DNA of 63,694 nucleotides from Minisyncoccota bacterium (GTDB lineage: Bacteria > Patescibacteriota > Minisyncoccia > Phycocordibacterales > UBA5272). The stretch is from assembly GCA_041651055.1 (NCBI GenBank), contig JBAZJW010000005.1:1-63694 (forward strand), written 5' to 3'. The position numbers and the translations under genes were made by a program. This document shows, in pieces, positions 9 to 63,694 of the stretch. The notes beneath the pieces are model-generated. The model saw only the letters and a list, made by a program, of their open reading frames with translations. It searched no databases and was not told where the DNA came from. The stretch's first letter is position 1, and the number at the start of each line of letters is the position of its first letter.

Positions 9-134
9 CCAGATGACGAACCTGCTCAGGCTTGCAAGGAAGAAGTACATGGAAACTGGTGAGGCGATAGTCACGTATGATGACGTTGTCATGGACGCCA
101 TTGAAGAACTGTGGAAGAAAGAAAACAAGTTCTT
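9..134. repeat. Left copy of 126-bp terminal direct repeat (= 63569..63694)
   Basis: Identical base for base by eye. It lies inside one continuous reading frame. nt 1-8 (accagttt) do not match 63561..63568 (tgcaggaa). Confidence 0.9.
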
Positions 135-360
135 CAACGACGACATCAGCACAGTGAGTGTGAACACCAGTGAGGAAAAGAACAGCAATCACGAGATGCT
201 GTTCCGAAGGCGCTGGAATAATCCCAAAGGGTTCAACAGCCCGTACTCGTACTTCGACGGGAAGCTAGTGCCGATAATGGTGGACGACAAAGGAAACATT
301 GTTTACCAGTACAAGCCATCACCTTACGAGCACAGGTGGCAGCAAGAGGGATTGCTATGA
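10..360 (+). CDS. C-terminal segment of the same radical SAM enzyme (10..134 duplicates 63570..63694); full protein about 457 aa
   Basis: The frame is open from the window start. MTNLLRLARKK at 13 is the internal Met seen at 63573. The stop is at 358..360. Confidence 0.75.
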   Translation, partial: QMTNLLRLARKKYMETGEAIVTYDDVVMDAIEELWKKENKFFNDDISTVSVNTSEEKNSNHEMLFRRRWNNPKGFNSPYSYFDGKLVPIMVDDKGNIVYQYKPSPYEHRWQQEGLL

Positions 361-887
361 ACAACATAATCATAGCAATCGGACAGTCAGGCAGTGGCAA
401 GACTACTTGGGTGAAGCAGAACTTTGTGGACGCTCACACCATTGAGAACTTAAAAGAAGGTTTAGTAAAGTATTGCAAGACCGACAGTGACTGCCTCTTG
501 TTAGGGCACTACAACGTGGGAATACGCACTGAGGGCACGGACACTCTAAGCTACAACGCAATTGACGAGGTGCTGGAGTTCATGTTCAATGAGGACAAGT
601 GCAATTACAGCACTGTTGTAGCCGAGGGCGACCGCATTAACAATGCCAAGTTCTTCCAGCGCATAGCACAGCAGTCAATGAATATTCACGTTGAATTGCA
701 TTATTTCAAGTGCGACCTTGCTGAATCAATGGAGCGCCTCAAGAAAGCAGGCTCGACCATAACAGAAACTTTCGTGAAGACGACAATGACCAAGAGTGCA
801 AACAATGCCAAGCTGGCACGTCAGTTAGGATTCAATGTGACCATTCACGACACTAACAGCAAACAACGTGGATTGTGGGGCATGTAA
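357..887 (+). CDS. P-loop kinase (candidate DNA/nucleotide kinase, 5-hmdU-DNA-kinase-like by context)
   Basis: ATGA overlap with the upstream stop. Walker A IAIGQSGSGKTTW is present. The C-terminus is QRGLWGM (PIP-like). Confidence 0.6.
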   Translation: MNNIIIAIGQSGSGKTTWVKQNFVDAHTIENLKEGLVKYCKTDSDCLLLGHYNVGIRTEGTDTLSYNAIDEVLEFMFNEDKCNYSTVVAEGDRINNAKFFQRIAQQSMNIHVELHYFKCDLAESMERLKKAGSTITETFVKTTMTKSANNAKLARQLGFNVTIHDTNSKQRGLWGM

Positions 888-888
888 A

Positions 889-1530
889 ATGTGCGGAATA
901 ATAGGTGCTCACATAAAAGAATTTAACGGCAACACCATAAAATTGTTGATTAACTTGTTTAATGAGAGCAAGATAAGAGGGTTGCACAGCTTTGGAATTG
1001 CGTACTACAATCACGAAGGACACATTTGTGTGGAAAAAAGTCACACACTGGACGCACTTACACTGGTTTCAAGACTTGCTGCGTTGAGCAACGGAAAGTT
1101 CATATTCCATTGTCGATACTCAACGAGTGGCGATTGGACTAATCACAACAACAATCAGCCCATATACCTTCTAGGCATAGGGGCAATTGCCGTTAATGGT
1201 GTCATATGCATGGACGACAAGGAGACAATGGAGAAAAAATACAATGTCGTCTTAGAGACTGCGAATGACGCTGAGATATTGTTGAAAAAACTTGAACAGA
1301 TGGAACTCATGTCGTTCATCAAAAATGAGTCATCAGCGAGCGTTGCAGCAACACTCCTGTCTGGGAATGATGTTTACGCTTTCAGGAATAACAAGCGTCC
1401 ACTATACATATACAACGACAACAAAGCCGAGAACAGAATTGCTGTTTCAACACTTGACATAATACTAAGAGCAGGCGGAAATAAAGATTGTGTCTCAATA
1501 TTAAAACCCTATAATATGTGCACACTATGA
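889..1530 (+). CDS. Stand-alone class II (Ntn) glutamine amidotransferase domain protein
   Basis: N-terminus is MCGIIG (Cys nucleophile after Met removal). Other motifs are RGLHSFG, HCRYSTSG...NQP, VNGVI and ANDAEILL. Confidence 0.75.
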   Translation: MCGIIGAHIKEFNGNTIKLLINLFNESKIRGLHSFGIAYYNHEGHICVEKSHTLDALTLVSRLAALSNGKFIFHCRYSTSGDWTNHNNNQPIYLLGIGAIAVNGVICMDDKETMEKKYNVVLETANDAEILLKKLEQMELMSFIKNESSASVAATLLSGNDVYAFRNNKRPLYIYNDNKAENRIAVSTLDIILRAGGNKDCVSILKPYNMCTL

Positions 1531-2582
1531 TACAAGCTTACAACAAAAAACGCTGGGAAAACTTTAAGCAATATTACAAGCTCATGCGCTACTCATGGGA
1601 TTGTGACCCAGCGTACCCTGCACTTAGGTACATCTGCGACAGGTATGAGTTGAACATGGAACAGCGTTACTGGATAGCATTCCTTTACGGTTGCACCTAT
1701 TGTGTGCCCACAACGTTTTACATTTACAACGAGTTTCCTGACTTTGAGAACGTCAGCATTGACAGGATGCAGAAGTGGTGGAAGGAAAACAAGAAGCGTG
1801 TCTTCTTCCAGTCAGACAGGGCGAAGATGAAAAACTTTGACAAGTTCATTCCTTGCGTGCAAAGTTATATGGAACTTATAAAACCTTGTGACAACAGCCA
1901 ACAACAACTCTTCTTTTCTCTCGAACAAGACTTGGAAAAATTATATGACATAACATACGAGAAAGCAGCAAAAATTTATTACTTCGGAAGATTCAGCCTG
2001 TTCAATTACTTAGAAGCACTCAACGAATTGACAGACCTGAAGATGAGACCTAGTATGATAAAACTTATTGATGCTGAGAGTTCACGCAACGGGCTTTGTT
2101 ACGCCTGCGGTGAGGACGACATGGTCACAATTCATCACGAGCAATCCGTTAAGCCGATTGACTACAAGTACTTAGCACTTGCAATGTGTGACTTGCTCAA
2201 AGAACTGCAGCAAGAAAACCCTGAGCTTAACGTGAACATATGGAACGTTGAGACAGTGCTGTGCGCTTACAAGAAGTTGTACTGGAGCACAAGGTACTTC
2301 GGTTATTACATTGACAGGATGCAGGAAGAGATAACACTTGCTGAGGAGTTCATTCCTAACGGGGTGGATTGGTCAGTGCTGTGGGACTTTAGACGTGAGT
2401 TCCTGCATCATTCCATGCTTGGAGAACTTAACAATTGGCGAGGAGTACGCCATGACAAGATGACAATATTTAAGAATACACAAAAATTTGTCAGTGTATT
2501 TGAGACAGTGCCAGATTTTGGTAACTTCAAAAAAAGTGTAACATTTGAAAAAATTGGTGACGTCTATGAACACGACCTTTAG
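1527..2582 (+). CDS. 351-aa helical protein; candidate aGPT-Pplase / amino-acid:DNA-transferase-like base-modifying enzyme (context only)
   Basis: ATGA overlap with the amidotransferase stop. It sits between kinase/GATase and GNAT. I can quote no diagnostic motif, so the call rests on gene neighbourhood. Confidence 0.35.
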   Translation: MIQAYNKKRWENFKQYYKLMRYSWDCDPAYPALRYICDRYELNMEQRYWIAFLYGCTYCVPTTFYIYNEFPDFENVSIDRMQKWWKENKKRVFFQSDRAKMKNFDKFIPCVQSYMELIKPCDNSQQQLFFSLEQDLEKLYDITYEKAAKIYYFGRFSLFNYLEALNELTDLKMRPSMIKLIDAESSRNGLCYACGEDDMVTIHHEQSVKPIDYKYLALAMCDLLKELQQENPELNVNIWNVETVLCAYKKLYWSTRYFGYYIDRMQEEITLAEEFIPNGVDWSVLWDFRREFLHHSMLGELNNWRGVRHDKMTIFKNTQKFVSVFETVPDFGNFKKSVTFEKIGDVYEHDL

Positions 2583-3105
2583 ACCTATACACGCAACAGA
2601 AAAAAGTGTAATAGAAACAATCTGCCAAGAAAGTGGAAACCCTGACATCAAGCAGTTTCCTAATTACTGGACACGATTCAAGAACTGGGAAAGCAATCCA
2701 CCATGCATCCTCATTGATGACGACACAAAGCGCATCATAGGATTCGCTGCATTCACAATGCAAAAGAAAGGCACTTATTGTAACTTCTACGCATTCTCAG
2801 TGCTTCCTGAATTTAGACGCATGGGGTACGGCGAACGAATTTGGAGATGCACATTATTGTTGGCGAAGAGCATGGGAAAGACCAGAATAAAGGCAGGAGC
2901 AAACATCAACTATTCAGGGTACGCATTCTTCACCAACAAGCTCGGATGGAAACCAATAGCAAAGAAGGGGAACGAGTACAGGTTTGACGCAAACATTACT
3001 GACGTGGAATGCATTGAAGATTTTAAGCGCATTGTCAAGAACCAAGACATTCCGCCTGATGATGAACTTAGTAAATATAAAAATATGGAGGAGTGCTTCC
3101 TATGA
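2566..3105 (+). CDS. GNAT family N-acetyltransferase
   Basis: GFAAFTMQ...FYAFSVLPEFRRMGYGERIW is a GNAT motif A-like R-x-x-G-x-G. ATG 2566 is in frame with the track ORF that starts at TTG 2545. Confidence 0.7.
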   Translation: MNTTFRPIHATEKSVIETICQESGNPDIKQFPNYWTRFKNWESNPPCILIDDDTKRIIGFAAFTMQKKGTYCNFYAFSVLPEFRRMGYGERIWRCTLLLAKSMGKTRIKAGANINYSGYAFFTNKLGWKPIAKKGNEYRFDANITDVECIEDFKRIVKNQDIPPDDELSKYKNMEECFL

Positions 3106-3290: not shown

Positions 3291-3463
3291 CGAATTACAA
3301 AGAATATAGTGATGCAAAAGAAGCAATATCTCATTGTATCTCTAATAAGGAACAGGAGATAGCAAAAATAGAAATCGAAATTATAGAATTAAAACATACT
3401 AGACGAATGCTTGATGAAGAATTTAAAAAGAAACTTAATGAAAAACCAAATTTTATTGGATGA
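3287..3463 (+). CDS. Hypothetical coiled-coil protein (58 aa)
   Basis: Hand-translated MTNYKEYSDAKEAISHCISNKEQEIAKIEIEIIELK.... ATGA overlap with the upstream stop. It is below the track size cutoff. Confidence 0.45.
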   Translation: MTNYKEYSDAKEAISHCISNKEQEIAKIEIEIIELKHTRRMLDEEFKKKLNEKPNFIG

Positions 3464-3467
3464 TAAA

Positions 3468-5267
3468 ATGATTAACGAAGAAAACGCACTGATACTGGAC
3501 ATTGAAACCAAGACTATGTCCAGCAAGCCCAGTGGTGAACTGGACATTCACAGAGTCACTGGAATGTACAGTTATCCTCACAACAAGTTCATGCTCACAA
3601 TAGCCGTGCCTAACGTCCAGGCTGAGGTGGACGGGCACAAGGTCATAGTGGGGCACAACATTGAAGAGTACGACAGGCCAGTTCTTGAACGAGCAGGTAT
3701 TAGCTTTGATTACAAAATCATCGTTGACACGTTGCGCATAGCAAAGAACAGACTAAAACCTTTGATGCGTATAGACACCGAAAGTCATAGCCTTCAAGCA
3801 CTGGCTGAAATTCTCAATCTGAAAACTTTGAAGGGAGAAATTGATTACAAGATATTCCAGAAGCAGCCGAGTGAATGGACGGAGCAGGAAAAGGCAGAGA
3901 TTGTTAAGTACACCAAGGGTGACATTGAGGTTACCAAGGAATTGTTCGAGCTTTTTTACAACAAGTTCGTTGTATTCAGACAGTTCGTCAGTGAGAAGAA
4001 TCAGAAAAACTGGAGCTGGCTGACGTGCAGCAGTGGAAGTTTGAGCTACAAGATACTGTGCAACTTCGCAGGACTAGAAGAAAAGTATGCCAACAAAGAA
4101 AACCCTAGAGAAAAAGTTGGTGGGTTCGTCCTTGAACCAACAGGCGAAGAATACTTTGACGTTTGGTACTTAGACTTCGCTTCACTGTACCCTCAGATTT
4201 ACATGATGTTCAACCTGTTCGGCAACCCCACGCTTAGACCTGACTGCACTGACTGGTTCACTGGCAACAGCGTGTTTGAGATTAAAGGCAAATACGCCAA
4301 GGACAAGCCTCACATTCTAAGCTTGAAGTATGAGTACATGTTCAAGGAGCGCAAGAAGGTCAAGAAGTCCGACCCACCACTAGCGTATGCGTACAAGATT
4401 ATCCTGAATGGTGGCTACGGAGTTACACGTAGTCCAGTGTTTGAGAGCATTTTTTACGAGCACACAGGTGCTGATTGCTGCCGTATAGGGCAGAAGATGA
4501 ATCAGCTGATAGGACAATTCTTTGACGAAGCAGGATTTGACAGCGTTGCTGGAGACACAGACAGCAGGTTCTTGAAGTACAGGGGTTCAATGCCTATTCC
4601 CGAGCAGAAAAAGCTTCTTGAAGAAACGACCAAAAAGCTTATTGACTTTGTGAACGCAAACGTTCCTTTCCCTTCGTCAACGTTCGAGCTGGAAAACCAG
4701 ACGGGAAATGAGCCAGTGAAGTACATCAAGTTCGTCAAAGACAGAATCAAAAATAAGTTTTTGAAAAAGAATTACTTGTACGTTTACAAGGATGACAAGA
4801 CAGGAGCTAACAAGGTTGAGATTAAAGGAATGCCGATAATAAAGCATTCAGCAACAAAGGTTGGCAAGCGTGTGCTGGAAGAATACATCAAGCCCAAAAT
4901 TATTGCGAAAGGCATATGCGATTTTTCCAAGCAGGAAATCATGAAGAAAGCTGCAGAGATACTGAGTTTAGACATTAGTTTGGCTAGTGTCATGTTTAAG
5001 GTGAACGCTGCTAATACTTACAAGTCACAGACGTGCATTCAATACGCCATAAGCCAGAAGTTCTTTGGCGGAGAATCAGGAGTCATCCACCTGGTCAAGA
5101 ACAAGCGTGGCGGAGAAGTCAAGACTGGTGACGGCTATTATTGCTCAATGGATTATGCACGCACAAAACTTTGCTCCAGCGACATCATACTAGAGAAGCT
5201 GGAAAATGAGATTGAACCTTTCGTGACGCACAGAATTAATAATCAAAAAAGCTTATGGAATATCTAA
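3468..5267 (+). CDS. polB: Family B DNA polymerase with 3'-5' exonuclease domain
   Basis: ExoI LILDIET, ExoII HNIEEYD, ExoIII YTKGD. Pol motif A DFASLYPQ, motif B KIILNGGYG, motif C AGDTDS. The C-terminus is QKSLWNI. The start could also be 3411. Confidence 0.9.
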   Translation: MINEENALILDIETKTMSSKPSGELDIHRVTGMYSYPHNKFMLTIAVPNVQAEVDGHKVIVGHNIEEYDRPVLERAGISFDYKIIVDTLRIAKNRLKPLMRIDTESHSLQALAEILNLKTLKGEIDYKIFQKQPSEWTEQEKAEIVKYTKGDIEVTKELFELFYNKFVVFRQFVSEKNQKNWSWLTCSSGSLSYKILCNFAGLEEKYANKENPREKVGGFVLEPTGEEYFDVWYLDFASLYPQIYMMFNLFGNPTLRPDCTDWFTGNSVFEIKGKYAKDKPHILSLKYEYMFKERKKVKKSDPPLAYAYKIILNGGYGVTRSPVFESIFYEHTGADCCRIGQKMNQLIGQFFDEAGFDSVAGDTDSRFLKYRGSMPIPEQKKLLEETTKKLIDFVNANVPFPSSTFELENQTGNEPVKYIKFVKDRIKNKFLKKNYLYVYKDDKTGANKVEIKGMPIIKHSATKVGKRVLEEYIKPKIIAKGICDFSKQEIMKKAAEILSLDISLASVMFKVNAANTYKSQTCIQYAISQKFFGGESGVIHLVKNKRGGEVKTGDGYYCSMDYARTKLCSSDIILEKLENEIEPFVTHRINNQKSLWNI

Positions 5268-5280
5268 AAAGGTGACTACA

Positions 5281-6012
5281 ATGAAACTGAGCAAGTCAAA
5301 AGTGTTGATGTTTAAAGGATGCCCCCACAGGTACAAGGTGACAATAATTGACGGGTGGAAGCCTAACAAGGCTGCTGCTCAGTTGCAGAAAGGCATTGAC
5401 ATTCACGAGCACATAGAGAACGTCACCAAGGACGTGAAGAATGTTACAGAACTCAAGCAGAAGATTCAGGAGCGCACCATAAAGCGAGACCACGCCATTG
5501 ACATAATAAACTTTTTCGATTGGCAAAGCAAGAGGAAGCTGCCAGTGTTTGTCGAAGAATATTTTTTTGATGAGGAATACAACCTGTCAGGAAAGATTGA
5601 CAGGGTCGACATGGACAAGAATGGCGAGCTAGTGCTTATTGATTACAAAACTGGAAAGGGCAAGTGGCTTCCCAACGGACAGCCTGCTTGGGATTATTAC
5701 AGGTTCGAGCTTGCTGTCTACACGTACTTGTTCGAGAAGTGCACGAATCAGACCATTAGCAAGTGGGGAATTTATTTCACCACACAGAATGAGTACATGG
5801 AAGAACCCGTTGTCCGTGCTGAAATAAAAAAAGCCTTGGACACTGTTGTTGAAGTCAGGACACAGATACAAGAATGTATTGACAAAGATTCCTGGGTAAA
5901 GTGTCCCACGTACTTGTGCAAGTGGTGCGAGCTTTACTTGAATAAGAAGTGTGACGGCGGAGAAAGAAAGTTTAATGACGACTTTGACGACTCTGGAATG
6001 CTGGTGATTTAG
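5281..6012 (+). CDS. Cas4/RecB-like PD-(D/E)XK exonuclease with Fe-S cysteines
   Basis: N-terminal Cys in FKGCPHRY. Nuclease motifs GKIDRVD and LIDYKTGK. C-terminal CPTYLCKWC...KKC. GGTGA lies 5 nt before ATG 5281. Confidence 0.75.
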   Translation: MKLSKSKVLMFKGCPHRYKVTIIDGWKPNKAAAQLQKGIDIHEHIENVTKDVKNVTELKQKIQERTIKRDHAIDIINFFDWQSKRKLPVFVEEYFFDEEYNLSGKIDRVDMDKNGELVLIDYKTGKGKWLPNGQPAWDYYRFELAVYTYLFEKCTNQTISKWGIYFTTQNEYMEEPVVRAEIKKALDTVVEVRTQIQECIDKDSWVKCPTYLCKWCELYLNKKCDGGERKFNDDFDDSGMLVI

Positions 6013-6014
6013 AA

Positions 6015-6464
6015 ATGGTCAACGCAATAAAAAAAGGGAAGAGCTTTGAGCGTGAAGTGGCCAATTACTTGACCGCAAAAACTGGAGTCACTTGGCACAG
6101 AGTACCGCAAAGTGGAGCTTTCGCCACTGTGAATAACAGCAACGACAGCAGGTTCGATGGTGACGTGTTCACCGAGGACGAGCAGTTCAAGGACTTAGTA
6201 GTTGAGTGCAAGAGCAACAAGAATGATGTTGACCTGAACGTGCTGTTTAATCCTAAGAGCATGTTTTGGAGTTGGGTCGAGCAGACCGAGTTTGAAAGCA
6301 AGGACAAGAGGTGGTTACTATTCTTCAAAATAACACACAAGGGTTTCTTTCTCGTATCAAAAGGTACGGAAATCTTCGAACTGCTGGATTTACACACAAG
6401 CAGATTGTCAATAAAGAATGTATGGAACGGAGCGGAAACATTACAGATAATAAAAATAAGCTAA
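6015..6464 (+). CDS. hjc: Hjc-like Holliday junction resolvase (PD-(D/E)XK)
   Basis: KGKSFEREVANYL...SG...DGDVF...VVECKS matches the archaeal Hjc motif order. Confidence 0.65.
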   Translation: MVNAIKKGKSFEREVANYLTAKTGVTWHRVPQSGAFATVNNSNDSRFDGDVFTEDEQFKDLVVECKSNKNDVDLNVLFNPKSMFWSWVEQTEFESKDKRWLLFFKITHKGFFLVSKGTEIFELLDLHTSRLSIKNVWNGAETLQIIKIS

Positions 6465-6631
6465 TGCACAATGGACATACCAGAGTCCGACGTGGGCATT
6501 TAGTTGTAATAGGCTTCAATGAGAAGAAGTATTATATTATAGTGGACGAGGACAAGAGATTCCAAGGCTTTTATTCTGGCGATATTGACGAGGTTGAACT
6601 TCCTACTGGGTGGTCGTTTAAATACTGGTAG
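6464..6631 (+). CDS. Hypothetical protein (55 aa)
   Basis: ATG 6464 overlaps the hjc stop. It is in frame with track ORF 6311..6631. Confidence 0.4.
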   Translation: MHNGHTRVRRGHLVVIGFNEKKYYIIVDEDKRFQGFYSGDIDEVELPTGWSFKYW

Positions 6632-6689
6632 ATTAGCCTTATTTATATACTTTATAAGCATATATAAAGGGTATATAAATAAAAAAGAG

Positions 6690-6753
6690 AAAGATATATA
6701 TACTAGCTTGACTATTATAATAGTAGAAACAACGCTTGGAGGCGCAAAAAATG
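6690..6753 (+). promoter_or_regulatory. Early promoter plus conserved leader, copy 1
   Basis: The order is AAAGATATATATA, then CTATTATAAT, then GCTTGGAGGCGCAAAAAATG. It is near-identical to the copies at 9087 and 12601. Confidence 0.7.
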
Positions 6754-7593
6754 ACAAACGAAACAATAAGCACAACAGTTGAAGGCAAAGAAGTTATCTA
6801 CGACGTCAGGAACAAGTCCTGGACTTACGACGGCGTTGCAGAAGCCATAGTCGTCAAGCTAACACCTAGCTTGGCCTCAACAGTGAACAAGGCTCTCGAG
6901 AAGAACGTAGCCGAATATCAGGCCAGGATACTGGAAGAAGCAGCCACTAAGAAAGCAGCAGAGCTTGCCAAGATGCAGGAGCAGCTAGACACGTTCAAGC
7001 GCAGGGTAACACAGGCTTTTACTTATGTTGGATACACGCTCAAATTCGCCGACCTGACCAATGTCTGGGCTAGGGTGAACGAAGTCAGCGTCAGTAAGGA
7101 TAACATAAGTGCAGAAGTCAGGTACGACAGCAGCGTTTACCACAGTGGAAGCTTCGGCTCTTCACTGACTAATAAGCCGTGGATAGTCAGTTTTTCCTAC
7201 AAGAACATAAGATATACTACTCTGGAGAAGGCATTGGAAGCAGCCAAGACAAGGATTGACGAGAAGATAGCAGAGAACACTGCCAAGGTAGAAGCTAAGA
7301 AGAAAGAAGAAGACAGGGACGTTGAGACACAGGAGAAGCTTGACCAGTACGGAATAAAGCTAGTCACTGAAGTTGAGTACGGCAGGAACAGAAGCTACAA
7401 TTGCAAGCGAGCCGTCATAACAGTAGCCGAGGACAACGACCAGAAGTACGGCGTAGCCCTTAAAGGCAGCTTCGGAATGACAGACCTTGAAGTCGAACAC
7501 GTCAAGATAAGGGGAAGATTCAGCGCAGAGCAGTTTCAGAAGCTCGCGGAGTTCGTCAAAACACTCGACGTGACTCCAGTGTACGATTACTAA
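6751..7593 (+). CDS. Hypothetical protein (280 aa)
   Basis: ATG lies behind the conserved GGAGG leader. The track ORF starts at an upstream TTG. Confidence 0.7.
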   Translation: MTNETISTTVEGKEVIYDVRNKSWTYDGVAEAIVVKLTPSLASTVNKALEKNVAEYQARILEEAATKKAAELAKMQEQLDTFKRRVTQAFTYVGYTLKFADLTNVWARVNEVSVSKDNISAEVRYDSSVYHSGSFGSSLTNKPWIVSFSYKNIRYTTLEKALEAAKTRIDEKIAENTAKVEAKKKEEDRDVETQEKLDQYGIKLVTEVEYGRNRSYNCKRAVITVAEDNDQKYGVALKGSFGMTDLEVEHVKIRGRFSAEQFQKLAEFVKTLDVTPVYDY

Positions 7594-7609
7594 TTGGAGG
7601 CGATGAAGA

Positions 7610-7927
7610 ATGACAGAAAAAATAACAGTATTTGGAAAAGAAATTCGCAAGGGGCACTGCTCTTGCTTGCCAGCAAGGATAGTGGTCAAGAGATTCGACC
7701 ACTACATAATGTGCGATATAAGTAGTTTCTTCTCAACTGAGATGAAACCGAGCTACGACGGGCAGGGCAAGACCAAGGACATGGGCACGCACCTGACAGA
7801 AGACGAAATCATTAAATTCTTAGAAGAAAGCACAAGCTTTGAAACGTCAGAAACTGACCATGAGAAGCTGCTCATAATCAACACGCCAGAGTTCAAGATT
7901 GTTGTGATAGTGGAGGAAAGAAAATGA
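7610..7927 (+). CDS. Hypothetical protein (105 aa)
   Basis: It is preceded by TTGGAGGCGATGAAGAATG, a leader-like sequence without a TATA box. Confidence 0.6.
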   Translation: MTEKITVFGKEIRKGHCSCLPARIVVKRFDHYIMCDISSFFSTEMKPSYDGQGKTKDMGTHLTEDEIIKFLEESTSFETSETDHEKLLIINTPEFKIVVIVEERK

Positions 7928-8073
7928 CATACGCAAGAGACATAAAACCCGAGTACCTAACAGACACTTTTTTTGGCAAGGGCTTTGAAGCCAAGCTCAA
8001 GAAAGCAGAGAAGAATGAGAAAGACCTTGAAGTTGGAATATTTTTTAACGTCAGGGACATGAAAGAGGTGTAA
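7924..8073 (+). CDS. Hypothetical protein (49 aa)
   Basis: Hand-translated MTYARDIKPEYLTDTFFGKGFEAK.... ATGA overlap with the upstream stop. Confidence 0.4.
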   Translation: MTYARDIKPEYLTDTFFGKGFEAKLKKAEKNEKDLEVGIFFNVRDMKEV

Positions 8074-8075
8074 CA

Positions 8076-8210
8076 ATGACAACACAAGTTGGCGAGACTG
8101 CTTACAATCAAGACAGGCAGGTCATCGAACAGAAGACTCAGGAAGCCGTCCTGAGTCTCACTAAATCTTTATGTTCATCAAAGAATAACAAACGTTTTGG
8201 AGGAAACTAA
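8076..8210 (+). CDS. Hypothetical protein (44 aa)
   Basis: Hand-translated MTTQVGETAYNQDRQVIEQK.... It fills the gap before 8212. Confidence 0.35.
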   Translation: MTTQVGETAYNQDRQVIEQKTQEAVLSLTKSLCSSKNNKRFGGN

Positions 8211-8211
8211 A

Positions 8212-9066
8212 ATGACACAAAGAACAGTAAACAAGTTTACCAGCTTGGCCTACTTGAAAAACATTGGGCTGGAACTGGACATGGCGAAGGAACGACCTTT
8301 GTACTTGAGCGACAGCAAGAAGCTGGACAGCCACAAGGCAATACAGAATGAGGACACCAAAGAAATATGCTGTGTGACCAACACAAACTACACCCTGGTT
8401 CAGCATCGAGAGATGATTAACCAGGTGGTCAACACTTTGAGTGCACTGAACTTGGAGTGTTACGGCAGCGTGGTCAACATGGGAAGCAAGGTCTACGTTA
8501 ACGTCTTGTTCCCGAAGATGAAAGTGAACGACGACGCCAAAGGAATACACTTGGGTGTAAGGTTCACGAATAGCTTCGACTTGACTACAGGCGTGAATTT
8601 TAGCATGTACGGCATGAGGATAGCCTGCGACAATCAGATGTTGCTGAAGAACCTGCTGTTCGCCGAGAGGCGCAAGCACGTTGGAGAGATTGACCTGAAC
8701 GAGATGACAAGGACTTTCCTGGAAGGCGCTGTCACACAGGTCAAAGAGTTTGAGATACTCGTCAATGACTGCATCAAAGACAGCGTTGAATGGAAGTTGC
8801 TCATGCAGTTCTTGGAACAGAACGTTCTGGGCAAGAAGCACCATAACGAGATTGTGGCAAGAATCAACGATACTCTAAAGGCAGAAGGCAGGCGCAAGCC
8901 GACAAGGTGGGATTTGTACAATGCATTCACGCATTACTTGTCGCATGACACTTTGCTCAAGGACGGCATCATTGACTACATGGAAAAGAAAGCAGCCATG
9001 GTACTTGCTGAGCCACTCGAGAACTTTGTTGACCAGACCATTGAGCTTAAAGTTGAAGCTCAATAA
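8212..9066 (+). CDS. DUF932-like protein (phage/plasmid-associated family)
   Basis: YTLVQHREM...GSKVYV...LGVRFTNSFDLTTGVNFSMYGMRIACDNQM resembles the DUF932 core (nShDGs...R.vC.N) as I recall it. Confidence 0.5.
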   Translation: MTQRTVNKFTSLAYLKNIGLELDMAKERPLYLSDSKKLDSHKAIQNEDTKEICCVTNTNYTLVQHREMINQVVNTLSALNLECYGSVVNMGSKVYVNVLFPKMKVNDDAKGIHLGVRFTNSFDLTTGVNFSMYGMRIACDNQMLLKNLLFAERRKHVGEIDLNEMTRTFLEGAVTQVKEFEILVNDCIKDSVEWKLLMQFLEQNVLGKKHHNEIVARINDTLKAEGRRKPTRWDLYNAFTHYLSHDTLLKDGIIDYMEKKAAMVLAEPLENFVDQTIELKVEAQ

Positions 9067-9086
9067 TTTTTTTTATTTTTTATAGT

Positions 9087-9150
9087 AGAAAGATTTAAAT
9101 ACTTGCTTTACATTCCAATATTATAATAACGCTTGGAGGCGCAAACAATG
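9087..9150 (+). promoter_or_regulatory. Early promoter plus conserved leader, copy 2
   Basis: AGAAAGATTTAAATA, then ATATTATAAT, then GCTTGGAGGCGCAAACAATG. A T8 terminator-like run lies just upstream (9067..9082). Confidence 0.7.
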
Positions 9151-9486
9151 AATGAAACAACAAAGTTTGTCTTGACAGGAACACCAAATATAGGGTTTAA
9201 GCCTGAACAAGAAACCATTGAAGCAGAAGTTTCTGTATTCAAAGGAACTAATGAAGGGCTGTGCATAAAGTTCAAGATTGGCAACAGGGAAGTCGTAAGC
9301 ATAGCACCATTTTTCGACGGCGGTAACGTGCTCATCAGCAAAGGACTCAGTGTTGACTTTGATAGCCATGAGGCTTTTGGCCACAATCACCTGTCGCCGT
9401 ATGTGTATGAAGAGCTTACACAACTGCGTACTGACAAGGAAGCTATTGAACGCATTGGAGAAATGCTCAGGGGTGAAAGAAAATGA
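9148..9486 (+). CDS. Hypothetical protein (112 aa)
   Basis: ATG lies behind the conserved leader. Confidence 0.7.
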   Translation: MNETTKFVLTGTPNIGFKPEQETIEAEVSVFKGTNEGLCIKFKIGNREVVSIAPFFDGGNVLISKGLSVDFDSHEAFGHNHLSPYVYEELTQLRTDKEAIERIGEMLRGERK

Positions 9487-9698
9487 AACTAATACAACTC
9501 AAATATTTAATCAAAGATGCTAGAGAATCTGCAACTTTTGAGCGAGCCCATTTTTATGTTTTTGATAGGAATGGTGACAAGAAAAACACAGAACTCAAAG
9601 AAAGAACTAAGCTATATCGTGACGCCTGGATAATAAGCAGACTCGACAGAGCACTTGAGATGATAGAGAAAGAACAGAACAAGAGGAAGCTGAAATGA
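9483..9698 (+). CDS. Hypothetical protein (71 aa)
   Basis: ATGA overlap with the upstream stop. Track ORF. Confidence 0.55.
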   Translation: MKLIQLKYLIKDARESATFERAHFYVFDRNGDKKNTELKERTKLYRDAWIISRLDRALEMIEKEQNKRKLK

Positions 9699-9880
9699 AA
9701 CTTAAAACAATTTCGGTCGAGCACAAGGCTGCCAAGAACTACCGCAGCTACGGAGTAACCCTCACTGCAGAACTTGGAACATTCGAGGACGAGAATGCCT
9801 GCGTGAAAGAACTCCAGGCACGAGCAAGGAAGTATGTGGCAGAGCAGCAGAACATTGACGGGGGAATCGGCAGTGTTTAA
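9695..9880 (+). CDS. Hypothetical protein (61 aa), possibly the N-terminal part of a fused 9695..10208 product
   Basis: ATGA overlap with the upstream stop. It ends 16 nt after a G5 run (9860..9864), where the next frame is already open. Confidence 0.5.
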   Translation: MKLKTISVEHKAAKNYRSYGVTLTAELGTFEDENACVKELQARARKYVAEQQNIDGGIGSV

Positions 9881-10208
9881 TTTTCCCAATACCACGTCAC
9901 TGTTAGCTAGGCGTAACGAACTGTTCAAGATAGCAGACGACTCCAGCCAGACGCCTGAGCGCAGAGAAGCAGCACGCAAAGAAGCAGACAAGCTAACAGA
10001 ACAGGCAATGACGCAGGCACGGGAACAGGCCATGAAAGAACCTGTCGAGCCACTTACACAAAAACCCACTGAACCCAAATCTGTTCGTGGAAGCAAAATA
10101 ACTCACATTCAATGCGCCAAGTGCGGTGCTATGAAACCGATTTACGTTGACCGCTTGAACAAAAATCCAAGCAAGTACGTGAACTGGAAATGCTCAAAAT
10201 GCAGGTGA
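9834..10208 (+). CDS. Hypothetical protein with C-terminal zinc ribbon (start uncertain)
   Basis: CAKCG...CSKC at the C-terminus. It overlaps the previous ORF by 47 nt. Confidence 0.5.
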   Translation: MWQSSRTLTGESAVFNFPNTTSLLARRNELFKIADDSSQTPERREAARKEADKLTEQAMTQAREQAMKEPVEPLTQKPTEPKSVRGSKITHIQCAKCGAMKPIYVDRLNKNPSKYVNWKCSKCR

Positions 10209-10213
10209 AGACA

Positions 10214-10351
10214 ATGCTGAAACAGATGATACTCGTAGGTAATGAAATAGAAATACTTGAGAGAGCATTAACCTTTATGGAATCCGAGAAAGAATTTACA
10301 GAGGACGAAATGAGACTGTTTCGAAGAGCACACTACATTAATAAAGGGTGA
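10214..10351 (+). CDS. Hypothetical protein (45 aa)
   Basis: Hand-translated MLKQMILVGNEIEILERALTFMESEKEF.... Confidence 0.35.
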   Translation: MLKQMILVGNEIEILERALTFMESEKEFTEDEMRLFRRAHYINKG

Positions 10352-10356
10352 AACAA

Positions 10357-10521
10357 ATGGCAGAAGTTGAGAAAGCAATAGTTGAAGTGAACTTCACTCT
10401 GTTGAAGAGTGTGTTCGCAAACAAAGGCGTATGCATTTGCTCGTTAACACAACAGTGTCCTTGTAAGGATTTTGTGTTCAACAAGAAGTGCAAGTGTCAA
10501 ACGTTCAAGGTGCAACAATGA
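10357..10521 (+). CDS. Small Cys-rich protein (54 aa; CIC-x5-CPC-x9-CKC)
   Basis: Hand-translated MAEVEKAIVEVNFTLLKSVFANKGVCICSLTQQCPCKDFVFNKKCKCQTFKVQQ. Confidence 0.4.
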   Translation: MAEVEKAIVEVNFTLLKSVFANKGVCICSLTQQCPCKDFVFNKKCKCQTFKVQQ

Positions 10522-12855: not shown

Positions 12856-12856
12856 A

Positions 12857-12982: not shown

Positions 12983-12983
12983 T

Positions 12984-14189: not shown

Positions 14190-14201
14190 AGAATTAAATA
14201 G

Positions 14202-14240: not shown

Positions 14241-14241
14241 T

Positions 14242-57404: not shown

Positions 57405-58211
57405 ATGGAAATACAAAACACATTGTCAGATGTTGATTCAGAAGTTGATTATATAATATCTCATTCTTCGCCTGTCCAGAGTTTTGACGGGGTTAATATA
57501 AGTAACAAGACCAGACTCAATGCTGAGTATGGCAAAACAGCAAACAATGGAGGAAATAAAATGACTGAACCAAACTATCCGCAAACAGCGGAACCAAAAA
57601 CAGAACTTAGCCTTGACGCAGACGACCTGAAGATAGCACAGGAAGTCAGTGAGGACGCCCCCAAGAAGAAGCGCACTGACGACAGCACCAGAGAACTGGG
57701 CATTGACGAAATGGGCGGACAGTGGATTAAGAACCCTGTCGTTGGAGAATCTACTGAGATGTTGACCATTGAGAAGGTCATGGAGAACAAGAAGATTGAT
57801 GCCAAGCGAGCAGACGGGCAGGCATTCAAGACCAACCTGAGCAGCGTGGACTACAAGATTGACATCTACACGGACAAAGGAATCTTCTGCCCTTCATGCT
57901 GGGAAGTCTGGGGCAAAGTAAAGGCTGCCATTAAGAAGAACAAGGACTTGACAGGCCAGGTCATCAAGGGCACGAAGTTCAGCGTGAAGCACGTCGTGAA
58001 CGGGCTGTACGCTGCCAAGCCAGCAGCAGAAGTCAGGAAGCTCTTAGAACTTCCGAACACTCCCGAAGGACTTGCAGCAGCGGAGAAGGCAGTGCAGGAA
58101 GCCAAGGACGCGCAGAAGAACAAAAAGTGCTACGAGGTCACTTTGTACGTGCAGAACCCTGCCAAGACGCAAGCAGCAGGCGCACCAGTATTTGACGAGT
58201 TCAAGTATTAA
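57405..58211 (+). CDS. Hypothetical protein (268 aa; alternative start 57561)
   Basis: Track ORF. It ends in ...PVFDEFKY. A second good SD, GGAGGAAATAAAATG, is at 57561. Confidence 0.6.
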   Translation: MEIQNTLSDVDSEVDYIISHSSPVQSFDGVNISNKTRLNAEYGKTANNGGNKMTEPNYPQTAEPKTELSLDADDLKIAQEVSEDAPKKKRTDDSTRELGIDEMGGQWIKNPVVGESTEMLTIEKVMENKKIDAKRADGQAFKTNLSSVDYKIDIYTDKGIFCPSCWEVWGKVKAAIKKNKDLTGQVIKGTKFSVKHVVNGLYAAKPAAEVRKLLELPNTPEGLAAAEKAVQEAKDAQKNKKCYEVTLYVQNPAKTQAAGAPVFDEFKY

Positions 58212-58355: not shown

Positions 58356-59192
58356 ATGGGAGCAAAAACTAAGACAACGAATCTTTTAGCATTCTTGAAG
58401 AAAGTGACTTTCAACAACGCCCTGAACGACATCCTTCTGGACTTTCGGGCTGATGGAGTTCACGTCAGGGCAATGAGTTCTAACATCTTGTTCAGTGAAG
58501 GACTGCTCAAGAAGAGTGCGTTCACTGAGTACGAGGCAATAGGCAGAGTTGGAATACCAAACTGCACCAAGCTCGTGAACCTGCTCAAGACCAAGAAAGG
58601 CGACATCCTTCTTAGCAAGACAGCTGATGGAAAACTGTGCTACGCTGTTGAGACGAGCGCAGCGCACATTCCACTTTGTGAGGACAAGTTCGTGAGCAGC
58701 AACGTTGAGGAGCAGCCACCATTCATTCCAAACCTTGACGCTGGGTTCAACCTGACCTCAACTGAGTTCAAGAAGATACTCACTGACTGGAACACCATTG
58801 GAAGCAGCAAGATTGAAGTCATCAGTGACGGAAAGAGCCTAACATTCAGCACTGAGGACGACACTGGTTACCAAGTTGCTGAATCCTTCCCAGTCAAGTA
58901 CACTACAGGCAAGACACTGCTAGGACTTTGCTTGAAGGACGTCATGAAAGTGGCTGAAGGAAACCTTAACGTGACTTTCAAGTTCACCACTAGCGACAAG
59001 GACAACCTGCCATTGAGAGTGAGGGAAGAACGTGAGCACTACACTGTCGACCTAATCATTGCGCCTTTAGACCCTGACAGTGAGACGCACAAGAAAGCGC
59101 AGGAAGAAGCAAAGAAGAGGCAAGACGCTCAGGATGCAGAAGAAAAAGCAGAAGCTGTTGCTGCAAGTGAGGTGGACTCTGATGGGCAGTGA
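58356..59192 (+). CDS. pcna: PCNA-like sliding clamp with acidic C-terminal tail
   Basis: About 250-aa two-domain-length core (...DILLDFRADGVHVRAMSSN...FSTEDDTGYQV...) plus an acidic tail. It is adjacent to the RFC homologue. Confidence 0.6.
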   Translation: MGAKTKTTNLLAFLKKVTFNNALNDILLDFRADGVHVRAMSSNILFSEGLLKKSAFTEYEAIGRVGIPNCTKLVNLLKTKKGDILLSKTADGKLCYAVETSAAHIPLCEDKFVSSNVEEQPPFIPNLDAGFNLTSTEFKKILTDWNTIGSSKIEVISDGKSLTFSTEDDTGYQVAESFPVKYTTGKTLLGLCLKDVMKVAEGNLNVTFKFTTSDKDNLPLRVREEREHYTVDLIIAPLDPDSETHKKAQEEAKKRQDAQDAEEKAEAVAASEVDSDGQ

Positions 59193-59399: not shown

Positions 59400-60284
59400 A
59401 TGTGGATAGAAAAATACAGACCTCACAAGTTTGAGGACGTGCAAGGCTTAGACCCTGAACTTCCCAAGCTGGTAAATGATGACATGCCTCACCTCATGTT
59501 CGTGGGCAAGGCAGGCTCAGGCAAGACCACTACAGCACGAATCATTGTTGACGTGCTAGGCTGCGACTGCTTGCGCTTGAATGCTTCTGATGAGCGAGGA
59601 ATCGACGTAATCAGGGACAAGGTGAAAGACTACGCTAGGACTAGGAGCAGCAACGGAAAGTTCAAGATAGTCTTCCTGGACGAAGCGGACTTCCTGACCA
59701 AGGAAGCTCAGATGATTCTTAGAGGAGTCATTGAAGCGTACCACACAAACTGCAGGTTCATCCTGACGGGCAACTACATCACTAAGTTCGACGACGCTAT
59801 CAAGAGCCGTTGCAAGCAGTTCAGCTTCAACACACAAAGCAATGAGCAAGTGGCAGCGTATCTTGACAAAATATGCTGTAACGAAAACGTATGCGCTACA
59901 CGCGATGCACTCGAGAAACTCGCTGCCAAGTACAACCCTGACATCAGGACAATGCTGAATGAGCTAGAGACACTGGCCAAGAAAGGCACGAAAATAATGC
60001 CTTCAATGATTAGTGAGGAAGACGACAGGGTTGCCGAACTTGTGAAGCTGCTGCAGTCAGGGCAGATGAGCAAGGCAAAGAAGTGGATACTGGACAGCTC
60101 GTTCGACATTCACTACGTGCTGAACCTGCTCAACACTTACTCGTGGAATGCTGCTTGGGACACGCCTAAGAAGTTGAAGTTCTGGGAAGCCCTGGGCGAA
60201 ACGGAGTTCAGGATGGGACTGAGCGTTGACGAGGAAGTGCAGTTGTCGAGTGGTCTTGTTAGAATGTACAAGGCGCTGATGTAA
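59400..60284 (+). CDS. rfc: Replication factor C small-subunit homologue (clamp loader AAA+)
   Basis: [16 protein letters not shown], Walker [10 protein letters not shown], Walker [11 protein letters not shown], sensor SRC in AIKSRC. Confidence 0.85.
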
Positions 60285-61308: not shown

Positions 61309-61614
61309 ATGACAACATTAATTTTGGAGGCGCAACGCAAAGAGATACTAAGCCGTGGCGGACTGCTTCAGTCAGTGTTTGGTGACATGTCACCAGAAGA
61401 AGCACTAACAAGGCTTCAACAACCGCAAGAGCCACGCCCGATAATTCTGAGAAGACGATTTTCTGACCCACTGTTTGCACGCAAGCTGCTCGTCATGAAA
61501 GACAACGTCAGGCACAAGTTTAGACTGCAGAGAAAAATAAAGGACGTTGACAAGGAATACAAAGCACTTCCATATTATGGAAGACAAATTGAAGTTATCG
61601 AGGTGCACAGATGA
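61309..61614 (+). CDS. Hypothetical protein (101 aa)
   Basis: Track ORF behind the promoter. Confidence 0.6.
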   Translation: MTTLILEAQRKEILSRGGLLQSVFGDMSPEEALTRLQQPQEPRPIILRRRFSDPLFARKLLVMKDNVRHKFRLQRKIKDVDKEYKALPYYGRQIEVIEVHR

Positions 61615-62084
61615 GCGGAAACATAATGGACGATTTGAGACAGACAGCTTCTGGCATTCCGCCAGACCCCAAGATGTTCTTCATCCTTAACAGGTGGTTC
61701 AGCAATGAGCCCACCAATGCAGAACTTTGTGAGCGCCTTGACAAGTTCAGCAGGGGCAGGGCTAATCCTGAACTGCTTTGCAACATGCTGGCAAGGGGAG
61801 TTAACAAGCAGAAAACATTCATTCCTTACATCAAGAAGGCCAAGGACGAGGACGAAGAGCTTGTCGAAGAACTTAGACGATACTACGGAATGAGCACTCA
61901 CGAGTTCGCAGTGCAGCGCAAGTACATGAGCATTCATGACAAGAAGCTTCTTGCTCAGGTCGCAACGGCACTGGGTTGGGACTCTAAGAAGTGCAAGGAC
62001 TTCGGCGTTGAGTACGTCAAGCCAGAAGTAAAGAAGCTACCCAAGACCAAAGAGCCACAGGGCAAGAGCCTATTTAACTTTTGA
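61611..62084 (+). CDS. Hypothetical protein with C-terminal PIP-like tail (157 aa)
   Basis: It ends in PQGKSLFNF, close to the PolB tail QKSLWNI. Confidence 0.6.
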   Translation: MSGNIMDDLRQTASGIPPDPKMFFILNRWFSNEPTNAELCERLDKFSRGRANPELLCNMLARGVNKQKTFIPYIKKAKDEDEELVEELRRYYGMSTHEFAVQRKYMSIHDKKLLAQVATALGWDSKKCKDFGVEYVKPEVKKLPKTKEPQGKSLFNF

Positions 62085-62229: not shown

Positions 62230-62577
62230 ATGGGATTGTTTGACGACAAGACGATTGAGAAAATGCGTGAAGACAAGTTCAACAAAGCAATAGCGGAAGG
62301 CATGAGTTTGAGGGACGCTGAAATGGCATTCCACACCAGTGATGAGATACCACAGTCCGCAATCAAGGGCGTGAATCCGCAGCCGTTGAAGATTTTGTTC
62401 TACTTCAAAACAGCTCCAGAAGTGGAACTCGTGAAGAGGCACTTCAACGTTCTTGAGTACGTTGAACTCAACACTAGCGACACAGAGTTGTTGCTTAGAC
62501 TTTTACTTGCACTGGAGACGGGAATAATAAAGGAGGATGACTTGCCATGCTTGAAGAAATCAGAAAATCAGCTCTAA
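62230..62577 (+). CDS. Hypothetical protein (115 aa)
   Basis: Track ORF. It overlaps the radical SAM start by 31 nt. Confidence 0.55.
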   Translation: MGLFDDKTIEKMREDKFNKAIAEGMSLRDAEMAFHTSDEIPQSAIKGVNPQPLKILFYFKTAPEVELVKRHFNVLEYVELNTSDTELLLRLLLALETGIIKEDDLPCLKKSENQL

Positions 62578-63694
62578 GGTGGGCTGAGAACAACCAGGAC
62601 AAGACCTGCACGAAAGGTTGGTACAACAGTCCTAGAATTAGCAGTGAGTTCATGGACTGCTCAACCCCGTTCAGCTTTGACCTGTACAACTTCTGCTCAT
62701 TCGGTTGCTTGTACTGTTTCGCATACTACAGCAAGGCAAACAATCCGAGCGTGGCGCACAACAACAAAGCAATGGAACTGAAGAGCGTGAACGTGGACAA
62801 GATACTGGACATTTTCGAAGGCAAGTTCCCGAACAATATTTACTACAAGCACTTCATCAAGAACCGCAAGGTCATCCACATTGGCGGACTGGCGGACAAC
62901 TTCTGCAACTTCGAGCGCAAGAACAAGCGAGGACTGCGCATAATCGAGTACCTGCTCAAGACGGGCTACCCAACAATCATCAGCACCAAAGGTGACTTCC
63001 TCAGCATTCCCGAGTACGCTGAGATGTTCGAGAAGTACAAGGACACTGCCAAGATGGCAATTCAGTTCAGCATAATAACTAACAAGCCAGAACTTGCAGC
63101 GCAGATTGAAGTAGGAGCGCCTTCGCCTGTACGACGCATGGAGATTCTCAAGCAGATGCATGCTTGGGGTTACTGGACAATATTGCGCCTCAGACCTTTC
63201 CTCATAGGCGTGAGTGATAGAGACCTGGACGGGTTCCTGCAGTGCATGAACACTTACGACATTGACGCAATCAGCACTGAGTTCTACTGCTTAGATATGA
63301 GGGCGAAGGAAGAAGACAAGAAGCGTTACAAGTGGATGAGTGATGTTTGCGGATTCGACATCATTGACTATTACGAGAAGTTGTCGCCTGCTAGTAGAGG
63401 CACTTACCGCAGGCTAAACAGGAACGTAAAAGAAAAGTACGTGAAGAAAATGTACAAGTTCTGCGTTGAGAATGGAAAGCACTTTGCCATAAGCGACCCC
63501 GACTTTAAAGAACTCAACATGAGTGGCTCTTGCTGTGGTCTCCCTGATGACTGGAACTGGTGCAGGAACCAGATGACGAACCTGCTCAGGCTTGCAAGGA
63601 AGAAGTACATGGAAACTGGTGAGGCGATAGTCACGTATGATGACGTTGTCATGGACGCCATTGAAGAACTGTGGAAGAAAGAAAACAAGTTCTT
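62547..63694 (+). CDS. Radical SAM enzyme, SplB/spore-photoproduct-lyase-like (N-terminal 382 codons; runs off the window end and continues at 135..360)
   Basis: ATG 62547 lies behind AGGAGG. It carries a CX3CX2C cluster CSFGCLYC in ...FDLYNFCSFGCLYCFAYY.... The frame is open to the window end and in phase with 13..360 through the repeat (63573 = 13). It is absent from the ORF track because it has no stop inside the window. Confidence 0.75.
   Translation, partial: MLEEIRKSALRWAENNQDKTCTKGWYNSPRISSEFMDCSTPFSFDLYNFCSFGCLYCFAYYSKANNPSVAHNNKAMELKSVNVDKILDIFEGKFPNNIYYKHFIKNRKVIHIGGLADNFCNFERKNKRGLRIIEYLLKTGYPTIISTKGDFLSIPEYAEMFEKYKDTAKMAIQFSIITNKPELAAQIEVGAPSPVRRMEILKQMHAWGYWTILRLRPFLIGVSDRDLDGFLQCMNTYDIDAISTEFYCLDMRAKEEDKKRYKWMSDVCGFDIIDYYEKLSPASRGTYRRLNRNVKEKYVKKMYKFCVENGKHFAISDPDFKELNMSGSCCGLPDDWNWCRNQMTNLLRLARKKYMETGEAIVTYDDVVMDAIEELWKKENKF
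63569..63694. repeat. Right copy of 126-bp terminal direct repeat (= 9..134)
   Basis: Same as the left copy. The offset of 63,560 nt gives the genome period. Confidence 0.9.

Follow-up and report, generated by a model that had tools for sequence, protein, structure and literature searches.

The window, by which we mean the whole stretch of DNA that was analysed (63,694 nucleotides), is circular, as positions 13..134 are repeated at its end as 63573..63694, and it therefore represents a single complete genome, that of a tailed virus of about 63.6 kb. The assembly places the contig in a bacterial bin, and the archaeal setting assumed in the initial annotation was no more than an assumption. That a circular viral contig was binned together with a genome is only weak evidence as to its host, the domain of which is unsettled. 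The features that concern us here are the following.

357..887, + strand: P-loop kinase of the 5-hydroxymethyluracil DNA kinase type (5-HMUDK, PF18751-like, Ploopntkinase3), 176 aa from its ATG, assigned by PF18751
855..884, + strand: add-on of the kinase, NSKQRGLWGM (core QRGLWGM), delimited by the kinase alignment
864..884, + strand: QRGLWGM of the kinase C-terminus ...SKQRGLWGM, with the TAA stop of the open reading frame at 885..887
889..1530, + strand: stand-alone Ntn glutamine amidotransferase, tailless (Pfam GATase_6, E 1.4e-4; MCGIIG start)
1518..2582, + strand: amino acid:DNA transferase (ADDT/aGPT-Pplase-like), tailless (Pfam PF18724, E 9.7e-22)
3438..5267, + strand: family B DNA polymerase (PolB; Pfam PF00136; 224 relatives, the closest P0068)
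5244..5264, + strand: QKSLWNI of the PolB C-terminus ...NNQKSLWNI (open reading frame)
58356..59192, + strand: PCNA-family sliding clamp with an acidic C-terminal extension (profile of 67 relatives against solved PCNAs)
59400..60284, + strand: RFC small-subunit/gp44-like clamp-loader ATPase (Pfam AAA, DNA_pol3_delta2 and Rep_fac_C; phrog_168 'clamp loader', E 8e-61)
61611..62084, + strand: ORF157, probable gp62-like small clamp-loader subunit (phrog_225 'clamp loader', E 1.2e-4)
62058..62081, + strand: ORF157 C-terminus ...PQGKSLFNF, with GKSLFNF at 62061..62081 (open reading frame)
62547..63694, continuing across the circular junction into 135..360, + strand: radical SAM gene, which precedes the kinase (ORF listing)

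The kinase, PolB and ORF157 have related C-termini with the common pattern [QG][KR][SG]-L-[WF]-x-[IMF], as had been noticed in the initial annotation, and all three were recovered at the positions listed above. Overlap of reading frames does not explain the kinase tail, since the downstream neighbour opens at the ATG at 889 (MCGIIG...), beyond the TAA of the kinase. When the terminal motif was written as [QG]xx[LIM][WFY]x[hydrophobic], it was met by these three proteins alone among 420 six-frame ORFs of at least 40 aa. This gives three carriers among the 87 ORFs of the window, against about 0.05 expected by chance. The same motif ends 6 of 3048 ORFs at unrelated loci; composition shuffles gave a mean of 0.05 matches per proteome and never three (0 of 2000), and the binomial probability of three tails is 7e-4.

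The tails do not follow the canonical PIP box. The initial annotation had cited the pattern Q-x-x-[LIM]-x-x-aromatic, and the full box (Q-x-x-[LIM]-x-x-aromatic-aromatic) had to be rejected because the spacing is wrong. PolB (QKSL) and the kinase (QRGL) have the glutamine of position 1 and the aliphatic residue of position 4, while ORF157 has GKSL and thus lacks the glutamine. No aromatic pair was seen at PIP positions 7 and 8, as the proteins stop at position 7; instead an aromatic residue stands at position 5 and a hydrophobic one at position 7 (LWNI, LWGM and LFNF). What the tails do satisfy is the short QL[SD]LF/QLTLF-type core, Q-x-x-L-[F/W], as QKSLW, QRGLW and (G)KSLF (definition according to PMC3504372).

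All three tails lie on flexible extensions outside the folded domains, as judged by alignment for the kinase and PolB and by a structural model for ORF157. The alignment of the kinase with its 65 relatives (closest P0004) has a conserved core that stops at T166 of 176, where nearly all the relatives end (...GEVIKTD). In PolB the tail follows the final conserved helix (ELEPF). A short aromatic tail behind this helix (QKNLWQI, QNIFDY, KSIFDY, KGWF, GGFF and others) is shared by relatives with as little as about 36% identity, and remoter ones finish at the helix with no tail. The last 25 or so residues of ORF157 form a disordered basic linker plus the tail in the AlphaFold2 model, which has no secondary structure beyond residue 130 and in which pLDDT falls to 58 and then to 49 over the last 17 residues. 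Close relatives of ORF157 end in GKNLFSF or GKSLFSF, and the closest one, P0340 (71% identity, 143 aa), stops short of the tail. The docking proposal was to be abandoned if the tails were not conserved and binding to a clamp was neither predicted nor measured; this condition is not fulfilled, as tails are kept in relatives and the prediction described below lends weak support.

The kinase gene belongs to a cluster with the appearance of a DNA modification pathway. Its match to PF18751 (E 7.6e-6, 26.0 bits) is just under the cut-off of 27 and covers positions 4-155 of 187, and the precomputed database annotation of the same protein (P0001) is also PF18751. The ADDT gene lies two genes downstream of the kinase, a pairing that recurs in the related loci L107 and L111. 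In L109 and L111 the kinase is preceded by radical SAM homologues ending in ...RW[KQR][KQ]EG[IL]L, and in L107 this place is taken by a 470-aa radical SAM enzyme (PF04055) with a related C-terminus. Characterised 5-HMUDKs phosphorylate 5-hmdU within polymer DNA, which is the first committed and post-replicative step of thymidine hypermodification (PMC8989533). A search of the contig for a thymidylate-synthase-family hydroxymethylase (dUMP hydroxymethylase, PF00303) gave nothing at E <= 0.01, and the substrate of the kinase is therefore not established. It may be supplied by another route, for instance by the conserved radical SAM enzyme.

The clamp sequence alone gave merely a faint Rad1 match in Pfam. 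A profile of 67 relatives matched the entire length of solved PCNAs from archaea and eukaryotes with E values of 8e-23 to 1e-11, the matches to 6t7x, 1ge8, 1isq and 3a2f (E 8e-23 to 3e-21) spanning positions 16-231 of 232, and 249 relatives were found in the representative library. On the strength of these profile matches the gene is a true member of the PCNA family, and the initial annotation was right in crediting the virus with a PCNA of its own. The acidic C-terminal extension comprises about 38 residues. The gene of the RFC/gp44-like ATPase adjoins that of the PCNA.

ORF157, which had been left anonymous as a 157-aa ORF, remains a carrier of the tail and has probably lost its anonymity, as it appears to be a gp62-like small clamp-loader subunit. 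The evidence for this is suggestive rather than strong. Four of ten members of the ORF157 family match phrog_225, with a best E of 1.4e-7. The AlphaFold2 model (pLDDT 81) has T4 gp62 (3u5z_A) as its top Foldseek match, albeit a weak one (E 0.72), and VIA-align against 3u61_A gave Z 7.8 with an rmsd of 2.6 over 67 residues, a middling value for a helical protein. The ORF157 profile found nothing under E 0.29 among PDB sequences. In the relatives examined, members of the family are encoded downstream of the RFC/gp44-like gene, directly after it in several cases; in the window three small ORFs separate the two genes, and intervening ORFs occur also at some other loci. If ORF157 is indeed a loader subunit, as seems likely, two of the three tail carriers are canonical clamp clients.

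Six further viruses with PCNA, loader, gp62-like and PolB genes were collected from metagenome and IMG/VR loci, which together with the window gives seven pairs of C-termini.

Window: PolB QKSLWNI, gp62-like protein GKSLFNF
L102: PolB GLDKWF, gp62-like protein GLDKWF
L107: PolB TKKWF, gp62-like protein KQTWW
L086: PolB IQGFFK, gp62-like protein RTRGFF
L092: PolB TKKFF, gp62-like protein KTKSFF
L082: PolB GGLFSYA, gp62-like protein KDLFSF
L083: PolB GGLNDYL, gp62-like protein RGLDGFM

The tails differ between genomes and are alike within each of the seven. The sum of same-genome similarities is 145, against 49 +/- 15 for derangements with a maximum of 102, so that none of the 1854 derangements reaches the observed value. 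PolB and the gp62-like proteins are unrelated, and shared ancestry cannot yield such matching; a common docking partner with which both tails co-evolve can account for it, as far as comparison of the sequences allows. An aromatic PolB tail is present at 6 of 6 clamp-positive loci and at 5 of 26 clamp-negative ones (Fisher p 5e-4, uncorrected for ancestry). Two of the five tail calls at clamp-negative loci are artefacts of the regular expression, and some of the negative loci are short. The matching rule is not universal, since the polymerase tail is absent from the gp62-like proteins of many T4-like phages and from those of L109 and L111.

Four distinct kinases carry a tail: that of the window (QRGLWGM) and those of L107 (EKQGWF), L109 (ESSLLNF) and L111 (KQKSLF). 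An RFC-like gene lies no more than 10 kb from each of them, and a PCNA was detected in three of the four cases, whereas the neighbourhoods of the 17 distinct tailless kinases contain no gene for PCNA, a loader, a gp62-like protein or PolB. The association between kinase tail and viral clamp system has an exact p of about 2e-4, without phylogenetic correction and with some loci being short. L107 has the same synteny as the window (gp62-like, radical SAM, kinase, amidotransferase, ADDT and PolB), and the ending [KG]W[FW] is common to its kinase, PolB, gp62-like protein and one further ORF. For L111 and L109 the PolB tail was predicted before the sequence was inspected, and the prediction was borne out. 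The former ends in KQGKLF, close to the KQKSLF of its kinase, and the latter in QTTLF, of the same class as SSLLNF of the L109 kinase. A single origin of the tailed kinases had to be rejected, as they do not form one clade in the maximum-likelihood tree, which requires at least two gains or losses. When the tails of modification enzymes were compared with the PolB and gp62-like tails of their own genomes, the sum was 83.5, a value that none of the 265 derangements reached (61.3 +/- 8.6); in the same test with all permutations, 17 of 720 scored as high. Genome-specific matching of the modification-enzyme tails is significant but modest, and it is clear mainly for the window and L107.

Tails of this kind were also found on other enzymes that act on DNA. 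Two TGT/DpdA-like paralogues of L102 (TIGR00449, E 3e-10) end in QKGLFDF and QKGLFEF. When viral-contig loci were scanned with the clamp-loader alignment, the loader closest to that of the window (41%) was found in L139, where PCNA, loader and a gp62-like gene (GSLFSF) are followed by three DpdA-like genes and then by FolE and QueC, a composition that points to a 7-deazaguanine cassette. Two of the three DpdA-like proteins end in TNLFRSW and SNLFGWQNL. In L111 two N6/N4 DNA methyltransferases end in TMKSLF and SENLL, with tails about 11 residues past the Pfam domain, and in L083 an XPB-like helicase bears a tail. A tailed 477-aa protein of L086 was placed among GT-B glycosyltransferases by Atlas, which we regard as a lead only. 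Across 80 DpdA-centred loci, 36 of 48 PolB proteins end in the polymerase-type tail [FY]xx[LMIV]F.{0,4}$, as do 10 of 75 DpdA-like proteins and 10 of 1084 other ORFs; the odds ratio for DpdA-like proteins against other ORFs is 16.5 (p 8e-8).

Binding of the kinase tail to the clamp was also approached by complex prediction, with PCNA residues 1-245 and kinase residues 145-176, both supplied as alignments, and three controls. The pair scored 0.37 (runs 0.30 to 0.53), and the highest-scoring of the three controls reached 0.02. The mark used is passed by 58 of 80 solved complexes and by 2 of 110 mismatched pairs; scores that pass it at 0.60 or below were obtained for only 7 of the 80 solved complexes, and for both of the passing mismatches. 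Contact agreement between runs was at least 50% and partner pLDDT at least 42, and no interface was reported. The prediction favours the pair over the controls, and it offers weak support without an interface. Since many PCNA-peptide complexes have already been solved, the weak pass may reflect likeness to them and nothing more.

The tails exist, they are additions to otherwise complete proteins, they vary together within genomes, and they track the presence of a viral clamp system. We consider it likely, though well short of certain, that the three tails of the window are short clamp-binding peptides which dock their carriers to the virus's own PCNA, the binding itself being inferred and unmeasured. 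The suggestion of a shared clamp-docking peptide that includes the modification kinase is thereby supported by conservation, by co-variation, by the tracking of clamp genes and by the presence of similar tails on other modifying enzymes.

Three other explanations have to be weighed against this reading, and the easiest to set aside is that the shared endings are a coincidence of composition without function. The motif is short, and in its loosest form, as a short hydrophobic ending, it occurs in about 5% of ORFs. Against this stand the shuffles, which never produced three matches, the attachment of the tails to conserved cores, their retention or co-variation in relatives and their link to clamp genes, so that a chance origin is hardly credible. 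It is also conceivable that the tails address a clamp of the host, either a bacterial beta clamp with its QL[SD]LF consensus or a host PCNA, and in this way recruit host replication or repair machinery. The core Q-x-x-L-[F/W] equals the short motif of the beta-clamp/PolB1 type (PMC3504372), and the main contig of the bin encodes a bacterial DnaN, the only PCNA of the assembly being the viral one. As stated above, however, the binning says little about the host. Moreover, the PolB and kinase tails are found where a viral clamp or loader is present and are missing in relatives without one, and they diverge genome by genome with the viral replication module, a change that a conserved host clamp would not need. 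We therefore regard a host clamp as an unlikely target.

Co-variation implies a common partner without naming it, and the complex prediction is merely weak, so that the tails might also be addressed to some other shared partner, such as the loader ATPase, a single-strand-binding protein, a scaffold of the replication compartment, or a protease or proteasome for which the tail would be a degron. Such a partner seems to us distinctly improbable, although it cannot be dismissed. The polymerase and the odd subunit of the loader bind clamps in all studied systems, the remaining carriers are all DNA-acting, the hydrophobic-aromatic chemistry and the terminal position are those of known clamp ligands, and the presence of the tail correlates with clamp or loader genes.

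If the tails do dock to the viral PCNA, a scheme for the order of events can be proposed, in which the place of binding and the functional link with replication are likewise inferred. A loader of four gp44-like subunits and one gp62-like subunit would place the viral PCNA on DNA. The tails, as a short PIP variant of the form Q-x-x-L-[F/W]-x-hydrophobic on flexible and mostly basic linkers, would insert into the hydrophobic pocket of PCNA. PolB would take one such pocket, and clamps at or behind the fork would leave free pockets for the kinase, which could then slide along the nascent duplex and phosphorylate its target base in a one-dimensional and processive manner. Hypermodification would accordingly begin at the fork or just behind it, before host nucleases meet unmodified DNA, and the untailed transferase and the tailoring enzymes would act after the kinase. 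The basic residues ahead of the tails and the acidic tail of PCNA might add electrostatic attraction, although this is inference only.

It is tempting to extend the proposal beyond the window, and with considerable reservation we lean towards doing so. Clamp-tethered hypermodification may be a general and hitherto undescribed strategy of viruses that have their own clamp. The first enzymes to act on polymer DNA (5-hmdU DNA kinase, DpdA-like 7-deazaguanine transglycosylases, N6/N4 methyltransferases and possibly a GT-B glycosyltransferase) would gain the tail of the polymerase and co-evolve with the clamp, and modification would be processive and co-replicative, not diffusive and post-replicative. 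The slot between loader and PolB genes would then serve as an exchangeable site for a 'modification cassette'.

The nearest parallel is found in phage T4, where gp43, gp33 and gp55 carry at their C-termini clamp-binding motifs that can be exchanged for one another (PMC2988020, PMC7892883). As in T4, unrelated proteins, including non-replicative ones, end in the hydrophobic peptide of the polymerase on a variable linker; in T4 this peptide binds the trimeric clamp that the phage itself encodes. The two systems differ in that the additional clients in T4 are transcription factors on gp45, while here they are base-modification enzymes, the clamp is a recognisable PCNA and binding has not been shown. 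In archaea PIP motifs are found at extreme C-termini, with QLTLF in Sulfolobus PolB1, and the bacterial counterpart is QL[SD]LF (PMC3504372). The C-terminal PIP peptides of archaeal PolB, Fen1, RNase HII and the RFC large subunit resemble those of the window in their position at the very end of the protein and in the core Gln-x-x-Leu-aromatic, and in both cases the polymerase and the odd clamp-loader subunit are among the carriers. In contrast to the archaeal peptides, the tails of the window lack the aromatic pair at positions 7 and 8, one of them lacks the glutamine, and the loader subunit is gp62-like and not an RFC large subunit.

We know of no archaeal cellular counterpart to the kinase as a clamp client. 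The RFC large subunit of Pyrococcus has a PIP peptide, which is not used as evidence here. In eukaryotes maintenance DNA methylation is coupled to PCNA, and DNMT1 has a PIP box; one paper is said to concern a 6mA methyltransferase and PCNA. The eukaryotic system shares with our proposal that a DNA-modifying enzyme rides on the clamp and that nascent DNA is modified at the fork. It differs in being cellular, epigenetic and confined to methylation, whereas here the first enzyme of a viral hypermodification pathway with several steps, and in relatives DpdA-like enzymes and methyltransferases, are proposed to use the virus's own clamp.

With regard to the modification genes, the phages M6, ViI and PaMx11 likewise have a P-loop kinase beside ADDT/aGPT-Pplase, with accessory radical SAM and amidotransferase genes (PMC8989533, PMC5889632). 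The difference is that the characterised kinases have no clamp tail, and that no hydroxymethylase of the thymidylate-synthase type was found in the virus of the window. The terms replisome and processivity do not occur in PMC8989533, and our literature search found no paper that connects a sliding clamp with 5-HMUDK, DpdA or viral hypermodification.

Hypermodification of phage and archaeal-virus DNA defeats host nucleases, and it is an open question by what means the modifying enzymes reach newly made duplex in time. If the committing enzyme carries a clamp tail, this offers a concrete and testable mechanism, namely one-dimensional scanning on a loaded clamp, and clamp tethering could also account for partial or patterned modification. 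The tail would further predict which enzyme of an unknown cassette acts on polymer DNA, and the matching of a tail to that of the polymerase could serve as a cheap way of recognising enzymes that act on DNA when the genomes of uncultivated viruses are annotated. Provided that the inferred binding holds, the list of sliding-clamp clients would be extended to a nucleobase kinase and to DpdA-like transglycosylases.

In a survey from 2011, gp62 had no detectable homologues beyond the T4-like phages (PMC3201878); the data presented here indicate gp62-type loader subunits outside that group. PolB and PCNA of the window had no tblastn match in the GenBank phage collection.

A possible fourth tail, ...PVFDEFKY, was considered in the 268-aa protein encoded upstream of PCNA (57405..58211). 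For the fold of this protein the best Foldseek E was 0.13, Atlas gave leads only, and phmmer against the PDB was empty. The extension is peculiar to the window and missing in 15 homologues, and it was rejected as a tail, since AlphaFold2 builds it as a confident beta hairpin within the fold (pLDDT 83-90).

Interchangeable DNA-modification cassettes occupy the slot that separates PolB from the clamp-loader genes. Its positions in the window and in four related loci from metagenome and viral contigs are as follows:

62547..63694 + 135..3105, window, modification-cassette slot
5264-10029, L107, modification-cassette slot
4937-10522, L111, modification-cassette slot
7173-9990, L102, modification-cassette slot
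12628-17806, L139, modification-cassette slot

A thymidine hypermodification set (radical SAM enzyme, kinase of the 5-hydroxymethyluracil DNA kinase type and amino acid:DNA transferase) fills the slot in the window, L107, L109 and L111; a 7-deazaguanine set (DpdA-like paralogues, FolE and QueC) is found there in L102 and L139. In all four loci with the thymidine set the radical SAM enzyme is SPL-like and lies upstream of the kinase, and it may supply or alter the kinase substrate. No gene of the thymidylate synthase family (PF00303) was found anywhere on the viral contig. The radical SAM gene of L111 (6250-8052) contains an intein (Intein_splicing, E 7e-13).

ORF157, the probable small clamp-loader subunit of this virus, is a member of a gp62-like family:

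61611..62084, window, ORF157, gp62-like family member
7414-7881, L082, gp62-like family member
8971-9504, L086, gp62-like family member

About 50 further matches to the family come from clamp-loader loci, and a gp44/RFC-like gene precedes the gp62-like gene in many contigs of T4-like type as well as in the PCNA-encoding viruses considered here. According to a survey of 2011, no gp62 homologues were detectable outside T4-like phages (PMC3201878).

Immediately upstream of PCNA lies a further gene:

57405..58211, window, 268-aa protein

Its core of about 150 residues is conserved close to PolB in 18 other loci, and the window copy has in addition a disordered N-terminal extension of 75 residues and a C-terminal one of 20. 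Its fold gave no clear match, only faint OB/SSB-like leads.

The PCNA of the circular viral contig (C5) is the only one in the assembly, whose main contig (C1) encodes a beta clamp of the bacterial kind (DnaN), and the bin therefore does not secure the label “archaeal virus”.

In L086, a 477-aa protein (7407-8840), encoded between the gp62-like gene and the clamp loader, ends in KTRGFF, resembling the PolB end of the same genome; the Atlas groups it with GT-B glycosyltransferases, which makes it a candidate for a DNA glycosyltransferase tethered to the clamp. In the RFC-centred locus L168 another kinase homologue adjoins the RFC-like gene, and its aromatic end, ...KKFYNWSE, may represent another tail type. 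The PD-(D/E)XK (Cas4/Exo5-like) nuclease immediately after PolB in the window (5272..6012) ends in ...DDSGMLVI, which is hydrophobic, lacks an aromatic residue and could conceivably be a weak clamp ligand. As to PolB itself, the L092 gene (8121-11104) is divided between two ORFs (594 and 401 aa), and several relatives of about 1000 aa contain LAGLIDADG/intein domains.
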